Assembly (NCBI RefSeq): GCF_900289195.1
Contig: NZ_OMOH01000005.1
Coordinates: 265,930-291,488 of the forward strand
Length of the DNA stretch: 25,559 nt
Origin: Propionibacterium ruminifibrarum
GTDB lineage: Bacteria; Actinomycetota; Actinomycetes; Propionibacteriales; Propionibacteriaceae
Reading direction: 5' to 3'
A program made the position numbers and the translations under genes. The notes under the pieces were generated by a model. That model searched no databases. It was not told where the DNA came from and saw only the letters and a list, made by a program, of their open reading frames with translations. This document shows, one piece after another, positions 2,897 to 12,447 of the stretch; position 1 is the first letter of the stretch, and every line of letters begins with the position of its first letter.

Positions 2897-3634
2897 TCAG
2901 CGCGGGGCGATGACCGGCAGCATCTGCCGCACCTCGGCGGCGTGCACGCCCGAGACGCGCAGCAGGTGCCGTTCTCGCGCGGCGGTCCAGTCCAGCATGC
3001 CGGTGCACAGGGCCCAGAAGGTGTCCGGGTCGGTCTCGACGACGTTCGGCGGGGTGCCGCGGTGGTGCGTCGGGCCGCCGGTGAGCGCTCCGAGCTGCAC
3101 GGCCGTCACCGGGGGCACCCGCAGTTCGATGCTCTGGCCCGGGTGGCGTTCGCTCAGCGCCTGCGCGCAGGCCCGCAGCGCCTCGGCCGTGCCCGCCCGG
3201 TCGAGTCCGGCCCCGCACCGCTCGGCCAACAGGCGGGCCTCGATCGTCGCGGCCCGGATGACGTCGGGCAGCCTGACGGGCCCCTGGTCGGTCTCGACGA
3301 CACCCGTACCGGCCCCGTCCAGCGCCCGCCCGCACGCGGCTAGGGCCTCGTCCGCGTGGGCGGCCAGCTGCTCCGGCGACTCGTCGGCGGCGAGACGGTC
3401 GACCCGATCGTCGCGGGCCGGGCGGTCCTGCTCCAGGGCGGTCAGGTAGTCGGCCAGCGACATCGGGGTTGCGCGCAGCGGGGCAGTGGCCGCCCGCTCG
3501 ACGACCTCTGTCTGCCAGATGAGCTCGGCCAGGGCGCGGGCTCCGTGGGCTTCCGCGGGGTCTCTCAGCGCCCTCAGCCGGGTGAGATGGGCGCCTGCCG
3601 ATCTGCGTGCTGCCGCTTCGGCGCGGGTTGCCAT
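2897..3634 (-). CDS. Sterol-carrier (bacterial SCP orthologue, SCP_3-like) family protein
   Basis: ORF 2897..3775 trimmed to ATG 3634 (MATRAEAAARR...), which has GGGAGGG 6 nt upstream. The C-terminal SIELRVPPVTAVQL...GGPTHHRGTPPNVVETDPDTFWALCTGMLDW matches the conserved VRVPP..AVQ...HRRGTPPNVVETD..TWL.LATG core of actinobacterial sterol carrier family proteins as I recall it. Confidence 0.7.
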   Translation of the reverse strand: MATRAEAAARRSAGAHLTRLRALRDPAEAHGARALAELIWQTEVVERAATAPLRATPMSLADYLTALEQDRPARDDRVDRLAADESPEQLAAHADEALAACGRALDGAGTGVVETDQGPVRLPDVIRAATIEARLLAERCGAGLDRAGTAEALRACAQALSERHPGQSIELRVPPVTAVQLGALTGGPTHHRGTPPNVVETDPDTFWALCTGMLDWTAARERHLLRVSGVHAAEVRQMLPVIAPR

Positions 3635-4036
3635 GCGATCCCTCCCGCCTCGTTGGTCCTCATCGTCGCCCACCTGACGCGTGGACGGCAGGTCAGCGCG
3701 CTGCGAGACTACCCGCTCATCGGCTGTCGAGGCGCGGAGCTCGGGACTGAAGACCCCACGTCCCGCGGTGGCCACGGCCCGGCGGGATCACGAGGCATCC
3801 GCATTGCACCAGCAATCACTGAGCAGAGCAGTGTTTCTGCGCAGATCTATGATGCGGCACGAACTGGCCGAGGTTCGAGTAGGCTCCTGACGAGGGCAGT
3901 GGGGTTGGTCTCGAGACCGGCCCAGCATGTGGCGTGCTGTTCTGCGCGTCCGGCTCGGGCGGAAGCCGCCGAGAGCCCGATGACGTGCGCTCTGAAGAGG
4001 CGCTGTCGGCTGCGCGAGGGTCTCCAGGAGGCGGGT

Positions 4037-5668
4037 GTGAGTGACGAAGAGGACGAAGGCGCCGGCGCGGCTGACTTCTGGGCCATGACGCCTCCGCCGG
4101 AGCCTGATGACCCGGTGGAGCAGGATGCGTTGACCGATGAGTTGATTGACCGTGATCTGCTCGATCCGGTGACGGGGGCCGGACTTGCGCCGATGGGCGT
4201 AGCGACCCCGGTGCCGGAGGAATACTTCGAGCGGTTCGCGCAGATCTTCCCCCGGTCGATTCTGCGGGTGTGGCGGCGGTTCGGGTTCGAGGGCTTCGGT
4301 GACGGCCTGTTCTGGATCACCGACCCGCTGGAGTGGGCGCCGGTGGTGCAGATGTGGCTGGAGCCGGTGAGGGATCGGCTTCCGTTCACGGATACCTGGT
4401 ACTGCCTTGCCCGTGACGCCATGGGGAACCTGTTCCTGTGGGGTGAGAAAACCGGCCGCAGTCTGGAGGTCGACCCCACTCGTGTCGAGGTGATCATCGA
4501 CCAGCTCGCCTTACTGTCCTTCGACGATCCGGCGGTCCGTGAACGAGCCGGACGTGTCCGGTTCATCGGTCCCGCTGGCCGGATCGTTGAGGATCCTGAG
4601 GACGACGAGGATGACATGGAACCGCTGTTGGCGCCGCAGGCCCTTGAACGACTGGGCCCGGTCGACTCGGGGCAGGTGTACGGTTTCGTACTGCCACCGG
4701 CGCTGGGCGGGCAGCTCAGCGTCGACAATCTGCGGATCGTTGACGCGCAGACCTACCTGACCCTGCAGGCGCAGCAGGACGAGATCACTGTGAGCGATCC
4801 GGTCGGCGCCAACTGGGGGCAGGTCTCCACGCTCATCGGTGCCGATCCAGTGGCTCCCCCGGTTGAGCAGATGGGTGAGGAGAACGGCGGGGCGGCCGGT
4901 GCCGGGCAGGGCGATGCCGGCTCGGCGATCCCGTGGCACATGGTTCCTGAGCCGTCCGATCCGGCCGCGCAGGATGCGCTGACCGATGAGGTGATCGACC
5001 ACGATCTACTGGGGCCCGGGGGCGCGAACCTCAAGCCGATGGGTGTGGCCGTACCGGTGCCCGAGGAGTACTTCGAACGGATGGCAGTTTTTGTCCCGCG
5101 GTCGGTGCTGAGGGTGTGGCGGCGGTTCGGGTTCGAGGGTTTCGGCGATGGCCTGTTCTGGATCACCAATCCGTTTCAATGGATGACGGTGGTGAAGATG
5201 TGGCTGGACCTGGTCTGGGACCAGCTGCCGTTCGCGGACACGTGGTTCTGTGTGGCTCGCAGCGCCATGGGGGATCTGTTCCTGTGGGGGGAGGACAGCG
5301 GCAGAAGCCTGACGATCAATCCCGCCTACGGAGAGGTGATCATCGATTGGCCCGCCATATTGTCCTCCAGCGATCCTGATCCCGCGGCGCGACAGCGGGA
5401 CGGTCGCGCAGTTTTCACTTCTGCGGCGGAATGGAGTGTGACGGAGCCTGCGGATGATCTGGAGCGACCGCTGGCGCCGCAGGCACTCAAGCGGCTGGGT
5501 CCGGTCAATTCAGGGCAGATGTACGGGTTCGTCGTGCCGCCGACGCTGGGCGGGCCACTCAGCGTGGAGAATCTGCACATCGTCGACGCCATCACCTACC
5601 TGACCGCGCGGGTATGGCAAGGTGGGATCAGGGTGGATGATCCGATGAGTGACTACGACAACAGCTGA
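4037..5668 (+). CDS. Tandem-duplicated Tdi1-like protein: two complete GAD-like + DUF1851 (T6SS_Tdi1_C) immunity-type modules in one polypeptide
   Basis: The track ORF 3356..5668 overlaps the SCP gene on the other strand, so I reset the start to GTG 4037, which has AGGAGG (4026-4031) 5 nt upstream. Alternative starts are ATG 3980 and ATG 4085. Each half contains PVPEEYFER...LRVWRRFGFEGFGDGLFWIT(D/N)P (GAD-like) and DTW(Y/F)C(L/V)AR.AMG(N/D)LFLWGE...LAPQAL.RLGPV.SGQ.YGFV.PP.LGG.LSV.NL.IVDA (DUF1851). There is no stop codon between the halves. 543 aa. Confidence 0.8.
   Translation: MSDEEDEGAGAADFWAMTPPPEPDDPVEQDALTDELIDRDLLDPVTGAGLAPMGVATPVPEEYFERFAQIFPRSILRVWRRFGFEGFGDGLFWITDPLEWAPVVQMWLEPVRDRLPFTDTWYCLARDAMGNLFLWGEKTGRSLEVDPTRVEVIIDQLALLSFDDPAVRERAGRVRFIGPAGRIVEDPEDDEDDMEPLLAPQALERLGPVDSGQVYGFVLPPALGGQLSVDNLRIVDAQTYLTLQAQQDEITVSDPVGANWGQVSTLIGADPVAPPVEQMGEENGGAAGAGQGDAGSAIPWHMVPEPSDPAAQDALTDEVIDHDLLGPGGANLKPMGVAVPVPEEYFERMAVFVPRSVLRVWRRFGFEGFGDGLFWITNPFQWMTVVKMWLDLVWDQLPFADTWFCVARSAMGDLFLWGEDSGRSLTINPAYGEVIIDWPAILSSSDPDPAARQRDGRAVFTSAAEWSVTEPADDLERPLAPQALKRLGPVNSGQMYGFVVPPTLGGPLSVENLHIVDAITYLTARVWQGGIRVDDPMSDYDNS
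4085..4801 (+). repeat. Intragenic duplication, copy 1 (Tdi1-like module 1, MTPPPEPDDPVEQDALTDE...ITVSDP)
   Basis: Aligns codon for codon with 4940-5644, at roughly 60% aa identity by eye. The run 4266-4293 (gggtgtggcggcggttcgggttcgaggg) is identical to 5112-5139. Confidence 0.9.
4940..5644 (+). repeat. Intragenic duplication, copy 2 (Tdi1-like module 2, MVPEPSDPAAQDALTDE...IRVDDP)
   Basis: See copy 1. The copies are joined by a Gly/Ala-rich linker (4802-4939). The duplication is mirrored in two spurious antisense ORFs that both contain VIQNRPSPKPSNPNRRHT. Confidence 0.9.
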
Positions 5669-5685
5669 TATGACTAGGGGTTTTG

Positions 5686-6011
5686 TCACGTGGGAAGGAC
5701 GAGGAGCCGCCGGACGGGGTGCCTGGCGGCGCCTGTCTCGTGTTGGCCCGGGGTGGTGCCGGCGAGGTCCCGGCGGTCGCGGATCGTCTTACCGGGAACG
5801 TAGCGGTGCTGGTGGTGCCGGGCCCGCATCAGATCCGAACGGCAGTCCTCACACGCCCTGAAGATCTCTCCGGTCCACACATCCACCGCATGCGCCACCA
5901 CACAGCGGGCGTGCACATCCTGACCATCACTCGTACGCCCGCGTGAACAACCGGGGCCTCCCACACATGACCGCGTGAGGCCGGACAAGCCCGCCCTGCC
6001 CGGCAGCCCAC
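5686..6011 (-). pseudogene. Relic of an IS3-family transposase (rve integrase core), frameshifted and truncated
   Basis: Two reverse frames read together: ...RGHVWEAPVVHAGV... (5829-6011) then ...DVHARCVVAHAVDVWTGEIFRACEDC..MRARHHQHRYVPGKTIRDRRDLAGTTPGQHETGAA (5686-6033). This tracks the IS3 OrfB pattern QLWVADFTYV...DVFSRRIVGW....T.L..DALE.A...R....HHSDRGSQY.SIR.TERLAEAGI.PSVGSVGDA. The second catalytic Asp position is lost (HHQHR), and there is no OrfA and no C-terminal third. Confidence 0.4.
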
Positions 6012-6130
6012 GCATCGTTACGCGGCAAGCCACCGGCCCACCAGAACCTCACCACAACCCGGGGCCACCCACATACCGTCTAGGCTCGTGTGCAGCGGAC
6101 CGCGACACGGGTGTGCGGTGAGGAGGGGCC

Positions 6131-9097
6131 ATGGCAGCACGCAGGACGACACTGGCGGGCATCCTGGCGCGGCGCGGGTTCACCGGCGCCGCCCACGCCG
6201 CCGAGGTGCTCGAGTCGCTGCCGGTCGACCCGGCCGGGCTCATCGACGAGCTGGCCGCCACGGCCGACCCGGACCTCGCCCTCACCGCCTTCGCCGAACT
6301 CCTCGACAAGGACCCCGAGCTCATCAACGAGGTCATGGGCGACGGCGACTGGCGCCGCCGCCTGGTCACCGTCATCGGCTTCAGCCAGGCCCTCGGCCGC
6401 CACCTGGGCGCCCACCCGCAGGATGTGCGCGTCCTCGCCGACGAGCCGCAACGGTGGACCGCCGCACGCATCCGCGCCGACCTGCTCACCGCCATCGGGC
6501 TGGGCGAACTCGTCGACGCCCGACCCGACGAGCTGGCCTGGGCCGTCGCCACCGAACCCGATGCCGCCGACCGGCTGCGCCTGGCCAACAAGCGCCACCT
6601 GCTGCGGATCGCCGGGCGTGACCTGTCGGCCGACGACCCCCCGGAGATCGTGAGCTCGGTCGCCTCCGAACTCGCCGACCTCGCGGACGCCATCATGGGC
6701 TGCGCACTCGCGATCGCCCGCGGGCAGGTCACCGAGCAGGCAAAGGCCAGGCTGGGGGTCATCGCGCTCGGGAAGTGCGGAGCCCAGGAGCTCAACTACC
6801 TGTCCGACATCGACGTGCTCTTCGTCGCCGAACCCGCCGACGAGTCGGTCCCCTCCTCGGAGGCCACCGCGGTGGGCAATCTCATCGCCGCCGCCATGAC
6901 CCGCATCTGCTCGGCCCACTCCGCCAGCGGCACCATCTGGCAGGTCGACGCGGCACTGCGCCCCGAGGGCAAGAAGGGCCCGCTCACCCGCACCCTGTCC
7001 GGGCACCGGGCCTACTACGAGCGCTGGGCCAGGAACTGGGAGTTCCAGGCCATGCTCAAGGCCCGCCCCATGGCCGGCCACCCCGAGCTGACGGCCGGTT
7101 TCTGCCGGATCGTCGAACCCCTTGTCTGGCAGGCCGGCGGCCGCGACGACTTCATGAGCGAGGCGCAGGCCATGCGCCGCCGGGTCGTCGACCTCATCCC
7201 GGCCAAGGACACCGAGACCGAGATCAAGCTCGGCGCCGGCGGCCTGCGCGACATCGAGTTCAGCGTGCAGCTGCTCCAGCTCGTCCACGGCCGTGTCGAT
7301 GAGCGGCTGCGCCTGCGCGGCACCCTGCCCGCCCTGCGGGCACTGGCCCAGCACGGCTACATCGGCCGCGGTGACGCCTCCGAGCTCGACCGGGCCTACC
7401 GGTTCGAGCGTGTCGTCGAGCACCGCATCCAGCTGTTCAACCTGCGCCGCAGTCACCTGATGCCGCTGTGCGACGACGACCGACGCCGCATCGCCCGCTC
7501 CCTGGGCATGCACGAAGGTGAGGAACTGTGGCACGCCTGGCGCAGCACGGCCCGTGACGTCGAGCACCGGCAGCGCCGCATCTTCTACTCGCCGCTGCTG
7601 GAAGCCGTCTCGCAGCTGTCCGACGAGGAGCTGCGGCTGTCCCCGCAGGCAGCCCAGGACCGCCTCAAGGCCCTCGGCTTCGCCGACCCGCGCTCGGCGC
7701 TGGCCCACATCGAGGCGCTCACCAAGGGGGCCAGTCGCACAGCTGAGATCCAGCGCCAGCTCATGCCCGCCATGCTCGGCTGGTTCGCCGAGGGCCCCAA
7801 CCCCGACCTCGGCCTGCTCAGCTTCCGTCAGCTGTCCGAGGCGATGGGCGGCACCAGCTGGTACATGCGCGCCCTCCGGGACGAGGGGCAGATGGCCGAG
7901 TCCCTGGCGACGATCCTGTCGAGCAGCCGCTACGTCATCAAGATGATCGGCTACGTGCCCGGCGCGGTGCAGATGCTCGCCGACAGCTCCCAGCTCGCCC
8001 CGCGCAGCCGCGAGAGCCTCTCCGAGACGATGAGCGCCGCAGCCCGCCGCCACGACGACACCGAGGAGGCGATCGAGGCGCTGCGCACCATACGGTGCCG
8101 CGAACTCACCCGCCTGGCCCTCGGCGACGCCCTCGGCCTGGTCACCACCCAGAACGTGGGCGCCGGACTGTCGTCGGTCATGGCCGCGACCATCGAGGTC
8201 GCCCTGGCCATCATCGGGCGCGAGCAGATCGACCCGGTGCCGCCGATCGGGGTCGTCGCGATGGGACGCTGGGGCGGCGCCGAACTCAGCTACGGTTCGG
8301 ACGCCGACGCCATGTTCATCGTCCCCGACGGCACGAGCAGCGAGCAGCTGGCCGTCGCCACCCGCGTCGTGGCCCGCCTGCGCGCCCTGCTCAACGCGCC
8401 GGGACGCGGCCCCGCCCTGCGGGTCGACGCCGACCTGAGGCCCGAGGGCAAGGAGGGTCCGATGGTGCGTACCCTGTCCGGCTACCTGACCTACTACGAG
8501 CGGTGGTCGAGCACCTGGGAGCACCAGGCCCTCGTGCGGGCCGACTACGGCGCCGGCGACCGCGGACTCGTCGACGCCCTGCTGGACGGCATCGCGCCGC
8601 TGCGCTACCCGCCCGGCGGTCTCAGGGCCGAGCAGGTGACCGAGATCCGCAGGCTCAAGGGGCGGATGGAACGCGAACGCATCCGGCGCGGCACCGACCC
8701 GCACCGCAACCTCAAACTCGGCCCCGGCGGCCTGTCCGACGTCGAGTGGACCGTCCAGCTGCTGCAGATGCAGCACGCCGGCGACCTCGAACAGCTGCGC
8801 ACCCCGACGACGATGACCGCGCTGGCCGCCCTGCGTGAGACCGGTCTCGTGGGCGAGCACGACGCCCAGGTGCTCGGGCGGGCGTGGCGGCTGGCCAGCG
8901 CGCTGCGCGACCACACGATGCTCGTCAGCGGCCGCTCCAGCGACCTGCTGCCCTCGGACCCGCGCGACCTGGCGGCCATCGCCCTGCAGATGCGCCGGGA
9001 CATGAAGAACGCCTCCGAGCTCATCGAGGACTGGGAACGCACCTCGCGGCGCGCCTCGAACGTCGTCGACCGCATCTTCTGGGAGCGTGACGCATGA
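6131..9097 (+). CDS. glnE: Bifunctional glutamine synthetase adenylyltransferase / adenylyl-removing enzyme
   Basis: 988 aa with GAGGAGG upstream of ATG 6131. Two homologous nucleotidyltransferase halves are present: LGKCGAQELNYLSDIDVLFV...DAALRPEGKKGPL and MGRWGGAELSYGSDADAMFIV...DADLRPEGKEGPM. This is the typical GlnE architecture and size. Confidence 0.95.
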   Translation: MAARRTTLAGILARRGFTGAAHAAEVLESLPVDPAGLIDELAATADPDLALTAFAELLDKDPELINEVMGDGDWRRRLVTVIGFSQALGRHLGAHPQDVRVLADEPQRWTAARIRADLLTAIGLGELVDARPDELAWAVATEPDAADRLRLANKRHLLRIAGRDLSADDPPEIVSSVASELADLADAIMGCALAIARGQVTEQAKARLGVIALGKCGAQELNYLSDIDVLFVAEPADESVPSSEATAVGNLIAAAMTRICSAHSASGTIWQVDAALRPEGKKGPLTRTLSGHRAYYERWARNWEFQAMLKARPMAGHPELTAGFCRIVEPLVWQAGGRDDFMSEAQAMRRRVVDLIPAKDTETEIKLGAGGLRDIEFSVQLLQLVHGRVDERLRLRGTLPALRALAQHGYIGRGDASELDRAYRFERVVEHRIQLFNLRRSHLMPLCDDDRRRIARSLGMHEGEELWHAWRSTARDVEHRQRRIFYSPLLEAVSQLSDEELRLSPQAAQDRLKALGFADPRSALAHIEALTKGASRTAEIQRQLMPAMLGWFAEGPNPDLGLLSFRQLSEAMGGTSWYMRALRDEGQMAESLATILSSSRYVIKMIGYVPGAVQMLADSSQLAPRSRESLSETMSAAARRHDDTEEAIEALRTIRCRELTRLALGDALGLVTTQNVGAGLSSVMAATIEVALAIIGREQIDPVPPIGVVAMGRWGGAELSYGSDADAMFIVPDGTSSEQLAVATRVVARLRALLNAPGRGPALRVDADLRPEGKEGPMVRTLSGYLTYYERWSSTWEHQALVRADYGAGDRGLVDALLDGIAPLRYPPGGLRAEQVTEIRRLKGRMERERIRRGTDPHRNLKLGPGGLSDVEWTVQLLQMQHAGDLEQLRTPTTMTALAALRETGLVGEHDAQVLGRAWRLASALRDHTMLVSGRSSDLLPSDPRDLAAIALQMRRDMKNASELIEDWERTSRRASNVVDRIFWERDA

Positions 9098-11050: not shown

Positions 11051-11099
11051 GAGGCCAAGTATGGCAGTCCCGATGGGCTGAGAAACGAGCGTCTAGAAC

Positions 11100-11128
11100 T
11101 TGCAGATACAAGTGAAAGCTCTTACTGT
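11100..11128 (+). promoter_or_regulatory. Candidate sigma-70-type promoter of the HTH/PIN module
   Basis: TTGCAG (11100-11105), a 17-nt spacer, then TACTGT (11123-11128) in a roughly 50% GC intergenic island. The small palindrome CTGTtACAG (11125-11133) overlaps the -10, and CTCGCGAG (11150-11157) lies downstream; both are possible autoregulation operators. Confidence 0.35.
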
Positions 11129-11200
11129 TACAGATGATGTCGAGGACTTCTCGCGAGGGCTCTCGCATCAACTCGGCAGGGTGTTCAAGGGAGGAAGCCG

Positions 11201-11611
11201 ATGGCCATCGTGACCGACGCCGAACATGTCCTGACAACTGCCGAGGATGCGCGGGCAGCCGAAACCGTGGCCGAGGAGATGCGTCGTCCCAAGGCCGTTC
11301 TGCACATTGAGAACCTGCCGCTGCGAACCGTGGAGCTCATTCTCCGGGTACTCGACGTGACGGCAAGGGGAGGGACTCTCAGTGTCACCGCTCTGCCCGA
11401 AGAGCTGACGACGTCCACCGCGGCCAAGATCCTCGGCATCTCGCGCCCCACCCTGATGAAGATGATCCGTGAAGGCCGGATCCCGGCCCACGAGGTGGGG
11501 ACGCACCACAGGCTGAGGACCGAGGACGTCTTCACGGAGCTGCATGAGCGCCGTGAACGCCAACGCGCAGCCTTCGCCGAACTCCTCGAACTGGAAGGTG
11601 ATGAACTGTGA
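11201..11611 (+). CDS. Excisionase/MerR-type helix-turn-helix protein, putative type II antitoxin
   Basis: GGGAGGAAG upstream of ATG 11201. The C-terminal half LTTSTAAKILGISRPTLMKMIREGRIPAHEVGTHHRLRTEDV is an HTH_17-like DNA-binding domain, followed by an acidic tail. It sits directly upstream of a PIN gene. Confidence 0.75.
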   Translation: MAIVTDAEHVLTTAEDARAAETVAEEMRRPKAVLHIENLPLRTVELILRVLDVTARGGTLSVTALPEELTTSTAAKILGISRPTLMKMIREGRIPAHEVGTHHRLRTEDVFTELHERRERQRAAFAELLELEGDEL

Positions 11612-11725
11612 CCCTCGTCCTGCCGCTCTGCGTGGAAGGACGTTCTTCTCGTGAACAGCATGCCGAAGGATGTGCTGTTACGCTTGGCGAGTGATGACCC
11701 TTGGGGGAACCTCGATCTTCCCTGA
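11608..11725 (+). pseudogene. Possible ghost of a displaced PIN-toxin 5' end (non-functional)
   Basis: GTG 11608 overlaps the antitoxin stop (GTGA) and reads VTLVLPLCVEG... before stopping at 11692. The frame continuous with the antitoxin, past its TGA, reads PSSCRSAWKDVLLVNSMPKDVLLRLASDDPWGNLDLP*. As I recall, this resembles the LLDT.VL....RD.LL.LA..GL..P.W N-terminus of this PIN family. KDVLL is encoded twice (11636-11650 and 11666-11680) with different synonymous codons. Confidence 0.3.
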
Positions 11726-12305
11726 CGCCAACTTCTGGATGTCCAGGACACTTCGGGACTGGCTGATCCAGATTTATTTGGTGCCAGAGCATGCCCCTTT
11801 CATGGTCTACTGGACTGAGGATGTTTACGCTGAAACCGCTTATCACCTGCGACGGAAACACCCTGAGTGGGATGGCAAGAATGTCGCAAAGTTTCGGGAA
11901 AAGTTTGAGGTCGTGTTCCCGGCGGGACGGCTGGATGATTTCGATGGGCGGCCTGACAACGTTGTTCTTGCAGATGAGAACGATCAACACATTCATGCGG
12001 CAGCGGTTGCTTGCCGGGCTGATTACGTGGTGACCAGTGACAAGGGTTTTCACGCTGTGAACCGGGATGAGCTTCCTTACGAGGTCTATACCCCAGACGA
12101 GTTCTTCACGCTTGTCGACGAGTCGATGCCATCTGTCGTACGGGCGGCGGCTCTACTTCAGTTCAGATACTGGGAGGGTAATACCGACGAACCTGATATC
12201 GCGGCTCACCTGAGGAAAGCAGGGTGTCCAGAGTTTGCGTCACGTGTCGGTCGGCACTTGTACTTAGCGTTGAGCGGCTCGAGCCATGGCCATGCCCCTA
12301 TCTGA
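11694..12305 (+). CDS. PIN-domain (PIN_3-like) ribonuclease, putative type II toxin
   Basis: Track ORF is 11670..12305; I prefer ATG 11694 (MTLGGTSIFPDANFWMSRTLRDWLIQ...), though 11670 and GTG 11691 are possible. It has an N-terminal acidic PIN residue in FPDAN and a C-terminal ADENDQHIHAAAVACRADYVVTSDKGF...YTPDEFF block, typical of the PIN proteins that pair with excisionase-type HTH partners. GC is visibly lower (low to mid 50s % by eye), with many A/T-ending codons. Confidence 0.75.
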   Translation: MTLGGTSIFPDANFWMSRTLRDWLIQIYLVPEHAPFMVYWTEDVYAETAYHLRRKHPEWDGKNVAKFREKFEVVFPAGRLDDFDGRPDNVVLADENDQHIHAAAVACRADYVVTSDKGFHAVNRDELPYEVYTPDEFFTLVDESMPSVVRAAALLQFRYWEGNTDEPDIAAHLRKAGCPEFASRVGRHLYLALSGSSHGHAPI

Positions 12306-12396
12306 CGCTGAGAGGTTAATTTAGCCCAGATCAGTACGGAAGTGACCGGGGGTGGGCAAGGGTCCTTCGAACGGGCTTCTGGATGGCTTAAAGTGC

Positions 12397-12447
12397 CTTC
12401 GGGCCCGCCTCGGTTGAGACGGACCCGAAGACGTGGATTCGAGGCGG
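12397..12447 (-). terminator. Candidate intrinsic terminator of glnA1
   Basis: Immediately after the glnA1 stop there are alternative stems: CCGCCTCG (12405-12412) with CGAGGCGG (12440-12447), and CTTCGGG (12397-12403) with CCCGAAG (12424-12430). On the minus-strand RNA the second is followed by GCACUUUAAG, a weak U tract. Confidence 0.4.

Follow-up and report, generated by a model that had tools for sequence, protein, structure and literature searches.

A fused two-module Tdi-family protein without an adjacent toxin gene in a horizontally acquired island of Propionibacterium ruminifibrarum

Why would a Gram-positive actinobacterium without a type VI secretion system (T6SS) carry, in a single gene, two modules of an immunity family studied in T6SS-bearing bacteria, and no toxin gene alongside? 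The question is raised by the gene at 4037–5668 on the forward strand of a 25,559-nucleotide stretch of Propionibacterium ruminifibrarum (contig NZ_OMOH01000005.1, positions 265,930 to 291,488; the whole stretch is hereafter called the window). An earlier note, made from the letters of this DNA, recognized a genome of the high-GC, Gram-positive type, which the source organism confirms, and read the gene product as one polypeptide with two Tdi1-like modules, possibly an orphan immunity protein against Ntox15/Tde-like toxins. Based on the results below, this interpretation is partly supported: it was right in kind, as a two-module orphan immunity protein of the Tdi type, but its novelty was overstated. 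With moderate confidence, we suggest an Ntox15 immunity protein of the homotypic polyimmunity type that was captured without a toxin, is possibly bivalent and is derived from Tdi–Ntox15 cassettes of Actinomyces.

A single open reading frame (ORF) runs uninterrupted from 4037 to the stop codon at 5666–5668 and encodes 543 aa. An exact-sequence cluster look-up identified the product as SPF68668.1/WP_182858640.1 of P. ruminifibrarum, and the annotation of WP_182858640.1 goes no further than a GAD-like/DUF1851 protein. Translation probably starts at the GTG at 4037: a Shine–Dalgarno-like AGGAGG (4025–4030, forward strand) lies 6 nt upstream of it, and the resulting N-terminus, MSDEEDEGAG, agrees with those of single-module relatives (MSDDDD... 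and MNDNGEE...). The same GTG was chosen by gene callers in other assemblies. No motif comparable to AGGAGG was found in front of the internal ATG at 4871, and a scan for promoters and terminators gave nothing useful.

In a Pfam search with the whole protein, GAD-like (PF08887, E 1.4e-39) and T6SS_Tdi1_C (PF08906, E 3e-27) were each found twice. Searched alone, both halves contained the two domains in order and above the gathering cut-offs (25 and 27.4 bits, respectively), with 71.4 and 51.0 bits for module 1 and 66.6 and 46.3 bits for module 2, and so the two complete Tdi1-type modules claimed for this polypeptide are indeed present. The NCBIfam equivalog model NF041834 (immunity_TaeI) gave 167.3 bits over two stretches, against a cut-off of 450; by this score the protein is related to immunity_TaeI and not an equivalog of it.

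Alignment with homologues set the limits of the modules. Module 1 (aa 1–278, 4037–4870) includes an acidic/Gly N-terminal segment, the GAD-like and Tdi1_C core and the C-terminal tail VGANWGQVSTLIGADPVAPPVEQ. Module 2 (aa 279–543, 4871–5665) opens with a former start codon and the N-terminal segment MGEENGGAAGAGQGDAGSAIPWHM..., continues with a full GAD-like and Tdi1_C core and is devoid of the C-terminal tail of about 20 aa. The junction at the protein level reads ...PPVEQ|MGEENGG.... The units originally delimited at 4085–4801 and 4940–5644 proved slightly too narrow; the true modules extend further, which accounts for the real similarity seen upstream of the Met of each unit. The two modules share 64% amino acid identity over 250 aa (BLASTP, E 1e-105; 36% of positions differ), near the 60% judged by eye, and 75–77% identity of DNA at a spacing of 843–849 nt. 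The identical run of 28 nt was located at 4266–4293 and 5112–5139 and codes for RVWRRFGFEG. At the end of module 2, the terminal MSDYDNS resembles the module start MSDEEDE, and a 13-nt DNA repeat is shared by 4038–4050 and 5646–5658. This stretch (5646–5668) may be the stump of a third module copy, joined where the tail of module 2 went; no sequence downstream of the gene aligns to a third module. Directly 3′ of the stop codon, ATGACTAGGGG loosely resembles the toxin start ATGACGGGG of the Actinomyces locus L010, and this similarity is not significant.

By sequence, the family profile matched the DUF1851 chains of two solved structures, 8FZZ and 8G0K, in addition to Atu4351/Tdi1 (6ITW, E 2e-5). 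For module 1, an AlphaFold2 model built from a deep alignment reached a predicted local distance difference test score (pLDDT) of 90.6. Foldseek matched this model only to 6ITW, 8G0K_B and 8FZZ_B (E 3.7e-12, 1.7e-8 and 2.5e-8, respectively; the next match had E 0.2), with a template-modelling (TM) score of 0.74 to 6ITW, at a sequence identity of just 15–25% to the solved Tdi proteins. Given its 64% identity to module 1, module 2 is predicted to adopt the Tdi fold too.

Could an error of assembly or sequencing have hidden a stop codon or a frameshift between two separate genes? Tandem repeats with 75% identity are prone to mis-assembly, and the equivalent genes of Actinomyces ruminis are separate, with an overlap of one base. 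However, the linker is open in all seven full-length variants, which come from an isolate genome, two metagenome-assembled genomes (MAGs) and JGI, ENA and Logan assemblies, and point differences outside the linker show these sequences to be independent. With an open linker in seven independent assemblies, the fusion is genuine, and we regard such an error as having a negligible chance; the hidden stop for which the earlier note had advised a check was seen in none of them. In one MAG (GCA_040307615.1, L032), codons 174–182 of module 1 read SLFVESACW in place of VRFIGPAGR. This patch of nine codons, located in a loop of low confidence, has the appearance of a compensated frameshift; it is either a real variant or an error of the MAG consensus.

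The same variants bear on the upkeep of the modules. Between strains, the core of module 2 shows 3–4 synonymous and 0 non-synonymous differences, and its protein core is invariant in the seven variants. The ratio of non-synonymous to synonymous divergence (dN/dS) was 0.2–0.36 across all comparisons and 0.29–0.36 for module 2 against relatives. The columns that are invariant in a 20-sequence family alignment are kept in both modules, which is true by definition. These small counts are compatible with both modules being maintained for function and do not amount to proof.

The linker (4802–4939, forward strand) indicates how the fusion could have arisen. Its limits were taken from the alignment to L010, L012b/c and P0002 together with the junction DNA. 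The C-terminal tail of module 1 is joined in frame, at 4870/4871, to the Gly/Ala-rich N-terminal segment of module 2; compared with separate-gene relatives, about four codons, the stop codon and any spacer are missing. Module 1 ends with ...GADPVAPPVEQ, where the relatives go on for about four residues before the stop, and the start of module 2, MGEENGGAAGAG..., is the counterpart of the N-terminus MNDNGEE/MSDDDD of the relatives. In A. ruminis, the tandem Tdi genes b and c have a single base in common (TAGTG); therefore, a tiny change is enough to fuse such a pair. We suggest that the first gene of a tandem Tdi pair lost its last codons and its stop, giving one chain in which the flexible tail of module 1 and the Gly-rich N-terminus of module 2 would serve as the linker.

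In a four-point comparison of dN values, module 1 is grouped with module 2 (against L010/L012b and against L012b/c), with module 2 as the longer branch; therefore, the duplication is lineage-specific. A duplication in common with the b/c pair of A. ruminis was ruled out, as dN pairs module 1 with module 2 and b with c, which means independent duplications. The dS between the modules is about 0.9, or 4–5 times the dS of housekeeping genes between P. ruminifibrarum and P. australiense (0.18–0.21), so the copies probably diverged before the island described below arrived, with the reservation that dS values near 1 approach saturation.

The nearest relatives of the modules are single-module genes of the rumen bacteria Actinomyces succiniciruminis, A. 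glycerinitolerans and A. ruminis (70–71% amino acid and 70–75% nucleotide identity). In all three species, the Tdi gene, or the pair of them, is followed by an Ntox15 gene with a product of about 300–360 aa; these proteins match the Pfam Ntox15 model with E 1e-16 to 2e-13 and contain the catalytic HxxD as LHNPDQ. Ntox15 toxins are encoded at L010/L011 10807–11703 in A. succiniciruminis and A. glycerinitolerans and at L012 8789–9880 and L013 2937–4022 in A. ruminis. At L010, the stop codon of the immunity gene and the ATG of the toxin gene overlap as ATGA. The remaining matches in a protein collection clustered at 90% are all single modules of 290–345 aa. Among the fetched loci with enough downstream DNA, an Ntox15 ORF was found no more than 1.5 kb downstream in 32 of 47 metagenomic and 8 of 12 genomic Tdi arrays. 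The proposed tie to Ntox15/Tde-like toxins is therefore supported by the closest relatives themselves. In the survey of neighbourhoods and module numbers that the note had recommended, the nearest homologues are single modules beside Ntox15, and double and triple modules occur elsewhere.

More distant relatives (a clade with about 42% identity) have two or three Tdi genes in an array and, downstream of them, a gene for a protein of 600–760 aa, in which an N-terminal Ntox15 domain precedes a long Pro-rich tail; a long form of this kind is encoded at L005 12003–14195. In this clade, the array lies within a conjugative element of the type IV secretion system (T4SS) type, with genes for VirB4-like, CHAP, TrbL and coupling proteins. 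The Tdi copy of A. glycerinitolerans is likewise found amid conjugation genes (VirB4-like, SCO6880 family, DUF4913). In the Actinomyces cassettes inspected (L005–L008, 8081–16993; L010/L011, 9977–11703), the immunity gene comes first, the toxin domain is N-terminal and a Pro-rich or basic tail follows it, in contrast to usual polymorphic toxins with a C-terminal toxin domain and the immunity gene after it. We also found P0036 (747 aa, 57 member sequences), in which a T4SS coupling protein (T4SS-DNA_transf and TraG-D_C domains, TrbL-type context) carries a Tdi-like module N-terminally; this fusion suggests a physical tie between Ntox15 immunity and the conjugation machinery. Other hetero-fusions include P0187 (873 aa), with a SUKH (SMI1_KNR4) domain and a Tdi module, P0150 (577 aa), with a Tdi module and TPR repeats, and a 619-aa product at L005 8081–9940, in which a 360-aa N-terminal region of unknown nature precedes Tdi. 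In A. lilanjuaniae (CP032514, L003 10001–10879), the annotated 292-aa hypothetical protein is composed of a truncated GAD-like fragment, out-of-frame sequence and an Ntox15 fragment, with glgE on one side and a tRNA-synt_1b-family (class I aminoacyl-tRNA synthetase) gene on the other; to judge by its content, this locus is a Tdi–Ntox15 cassette under erosion.

In P. ruminifibrarum, the fusion gene lies in an island of 2356 bp (3724–6079), which replaces 41 bp of the SCP_3–glnE intergenic region of P. australiense (blastn against L029 and junction alignment); otherwise, P. australiense is collinear with the window at 91–92% DNA identity. The lower GC content that had been remarked on was confirmed (0.651 for the gene and 0.66 for the island, against 0.705 and 0.730 for the flanks), and GC at third codon positions (GC3) is 0.79, compared with 0.88–0.95 for the neighbours. 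Non-coding DNA of about 420 nt precedes the gene, given the SCP_3 start as called in L001, in agreement with the 400 nt estimated earlier. The right 285 bp of the island, up to its right edge, are a relic of an IS110-family insertion sequence (approximately 5797–6082, reverse strand), which substantiates the insertion-sequence relic suspected downstream. It includes the non-coding region upstream of the transposase and transposase fragments corresponding to aa 5–32 and aa 126–149, and it was identified by distant blastn matches to plasmid copies of IS110, the annotation of Gordonia pGKT2 and tblastn. About 145 bp of the pre-transposase region are 72% identical to the Gordonia plasmid copy. The region upstream of an IS110 transposase is the site of the guide ('bridge') RNA. 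The relic has no Pfam match, and an Rfam search of 3600–6200 returned just one sub-threshold chance match, with no model available for the IS110 non-coding region. No convincing target-site duplication or terminal repeats were found at the island edges, and small ORFs in the island flanks have no Pfam match. Based on the absence of the island from P. australiense, the low GC3, the IS110 relic and the nearest relatives in Actinomyces, the fusion gene was acquired horizontally and is associated with mobile DNA.

These data also bear on whether the Tdi-like fold plays another role in actinobacteria, an alternative left open in the note, for instance a housekeeping or regulatory one connected with the regulation of glutamine synthetase. 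The gene is indeed placed between conserved nitrogen-metabolism genes (glnA-like, glnE and glnA), and some Actinomyces modules are fused to a conjugative coupling protein or TPR repeats. However, the gene is absent from the locus of the sister species P. australiense and so does not belong to the conserved locus, its composition is foreign, and Ntox15 genes consistently accompany its closest relatives, which makes a non-immunity role very improbable.

As for the toxin, no remnant of Ntox15 was found on either strand of the window, either by a custom Ntox15 hidden Markov model (HMM) run on six-frame ORFs or by tblastn with seven Ntox15 proteins of Actinomyces, four of the long and three of the short form; the best matches of both searches were low-complexity sequences with E ≥ 0.01. 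The earlier statement that no toxin gene stands beside the immunity gene is thereby upheld. A query with the closest toxin, within its reach of fairly close relatives, returned solely Actinomyces and metagenome proteins and no homologue in any Propionibacterium. The gene is an orphan at this locus and with regard to close toxin homologues.

Absence of the toxin can be explained in another way. If the Actinomyces cassettes are addiction modules, the island may once have held a toxin gene that was lost, perhaps through insertion or deletion by IS110, leaving an antitoxin that is now a neutral remnant or an anti-addiction factor against incoming elements and does not serve to fend off neighbours. 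Several features of the relatives agree with this: the immunity gene comes first and overlaps the toxin gene as ATGA; the toxins are short proteins in which Ntox15 is N-terminal and trafficking domains of known type are absent; the cassettes lie amid conjugation genes (VirB4-like, TrbL, CHAP, coupling protein, SCO6880 family and DUF4913), with Zeta-toxin-like genes adjoining; and the pseudogene of A. lilanjuaniae demonstrates decay of such a pair. At the locus itself, the IS110 relic occupies the expected position of the toxin, and the C-terminal tail of module 2 is lost. On the other hand, the island keeps no trace of a toxin, a good ribosome-binding site is retained, and the gene is intact in 7/7 variants with only synonymous changes in the core of module 2, although the sampled divergence is small. 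We consider a leftover antitoxin a possible explanation, and the weaker one.

For the explanation that we prefer, a captured immunity protein, the mechanism is taken from Tde/Tdi complexes of known structure. Tdi binds Ntox15 1:1 and enters its core, which splits the fold and leaves the HxxD site disordered, and orphan Tdi homologues have an affinity of about 20 nM for Tde and protect in competition; AlphaFold-Multimer is unreliable for the Tde/Tdi interface (Bosch et al. 2023, PMC10470768). We propose that the Tdi pair was transferred horizontally from cassettes on conjugative elements of rumen Actinomyces and landed without the toxin gene in a small island, beside an IS110 element, upstream of glnE. 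Each module would bind one incoming Ntox15 DNase, wedge into its core and split the nuclease fold, thereby disordering the HxxD site. With one toxin bound per module, one cytoplasmic chain could neutralize two toxin molecules, or two variants from competing Actinomyces. The modules may also differ in specificity, and the gene may be of protective benefit in the rumen.

A number of points weigh against this explanation. The mutual arrangement of the modules is poorly modelled, since every homologue aligned to module 1 and the full-length model, with a 36-sequence alignment, reached a pLDDT of only 36. Between strains, module 1 has more amino acid changes than module 2, in counts too small to demonstrate selection, and the near-saturated dS blurs the order of duplication and arrival. 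Only one toxin gene stands behind the tandem pair of Tdi genes in A. ruminis; the number of modules therefore does not have to equal the number of targets. The orphan status was established for this locus and for close homologues of the toxin. In addition, the Ntox15 proteins of Actinomyces have no recognizable secretion or trafficking domain, and the immunity gene stands first and overlaps the toxin gene, an arrangement typical of toxin–antitoxin modules; because of these two features, the threat countered may be addiction to a plasmid or an integrative and conjugative element rather than an attack from outside.

There is a further, speculative reading, to which we give a low probability. The Actinomyces cassettes may represent an undescribed mode of Ntox15 delivery, in which the toxin is handed to the conjugation machinery with Tdi as a chaperone or adaptor and is injected into recipients. 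The double-Tdi gene would then be a bivalent chromosomal 'vaccine' taken from the element of the attackers, with each module tuned to a different rumen toxin variant. This idea is derived from the immunity-first order, the N-terminal toxin domain, the long Pro-rich or basic tail at the C-terminus, the position in T4SS-type conjugative elements and, in one case, the fusion of Tdi with a coupling protein.

How unusual is the captured two-module immunity protein? Its implied uniqueness did not hold. 'Polyimmunity proteins', with several immunity domains per polypeptide, including tandem SUKH repeats, were defined by Zhang, de Souza, Anantharaman, Iyer and Aravind (2012, PMC3482391), and orphan Tdi proteins are known (PMC10470768). 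In the part of PMC3482391 considered here, polyimmunity proteins are described as mostly located in toxin-less operons and are read as polyvalent, pre-emptive defence; they resemble our protein in having several immunity domains in a single ORF at a toxin-less locus. In the same part, the terms GAD-like and DUF1851 do not appear and Ntox15 is paired just with Imm-SUKH. Unlike the cases presented there, the repeat unit in P. ruminifibrarum is the whole Tdi unit of two Pfam domains, duplicated once.

Moreover, Actinomyces-type loci yielded nine more ORFs in which two or three Tdi modules follow each other without a stop, one in A. acetigenes (L022 1–1575, three modules) and eight metagenomic (L037 274–3789, L045, L046, L054, L055, L059, L064 and L086). 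The metagenomic loci came from a scan with the family profile; the metagenome scan queried with the full fusion protein gave no match. In these nine ORFs, the modules share one frame without a stop, as in the P. ruminifibrarum gene, and are joined via Gly-rich tails (e.g., ...GGQGGSVGFVRDEDLEW...), but they belong to another subclade (about 40–45% identity) and several adjoin an Ntox15 gene. To judge from these sequences, the in-frame collapse of tandem Tdi genes is recurrent, with the caveat that many of the examples are on short contigs of uncertain completeness. Two GAD-like domains were also observed in an unrelated protein of 541 aa.

Compared with Tdi1/Tdi2 (Atu4351, 6ITW; Bacteroidales, 8G0K and 8FZZ), each module of our protein has the same pair of Pfam domains, the fold modelled for module 1 is the same, and the relatives are paired with HxxD Ntox15 toxins. 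The differences are the two modules per chain, the extra acidic/Gly N-terminal segments and, in module 1, the C-terminal tail. Moreover, this host is a Gram-positive actinobacterium without T6SS, and the relatives have the immunity gene ahead of the toxin gene and the toxin domain at the N-terminal end of the toxin. The orphan Tdi genes and acquired interbacterial defence (AID) clusters of Bacteroidales (PMC10470768) are similar to the fusion gene in being toxin-less, horizontal and linked to mobile elements. However, the P. ruminifibrarum locus contains a single fused gene instead of a diverse immunity array, is devoid of an intact recombinase and belongs to another phylum, with conjugative elements of Actinomyces as the likely source and a function that is so far predicted from sequence.

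The rest of the window contains genes for a glutamine synthetase (glnA-like), a pyridoxal phosphate (PLP) enzyme, SCP_3, glnE, a short-chain dehydrogenase/reductase (SDR), TetR, glnA and ATP-binding cassette (ABC) transporters. The sequences of GlnE, GlnA and the PLP enzyme matched P. ruminifibrarum exactly, in agreement with the source of the DNA. A second island missing from P. australiense was found between the TetR-side genes and glnA (11070–12401; 1332 bp replacing 50 bp; GC 0.58). It holds a gene with a PIN_3 domain (11670–12305) and, according to the L001 gene calls, an HTH_17 gene, and it resembles a small insertion of the toxin–antitoxin type.

The concepts of orphan immunity and polyimmunity were already established, and the finding adds to known biology without changing it. 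Earlier work on the Tdi/Ntox15 system dealt with T6SS-bearing Proteobacteria and Bacteroidales; the system now extends to Actinomycetota of the rumen. The more unusual biology, the Ntox15 cassettes in conjugative elements of Actinomyces, is located outside the window. Within it, the island provides a clean, datable case of an immunity gene that moved between genera sharing a habitat, from Actinomyces to Propionibacterium, and was kept without its toxin. Finally, the merging of tandem Tdi genes into one chain of several modules is a repeated event, which raises the question of whether fusion broadens or strengthens protection.

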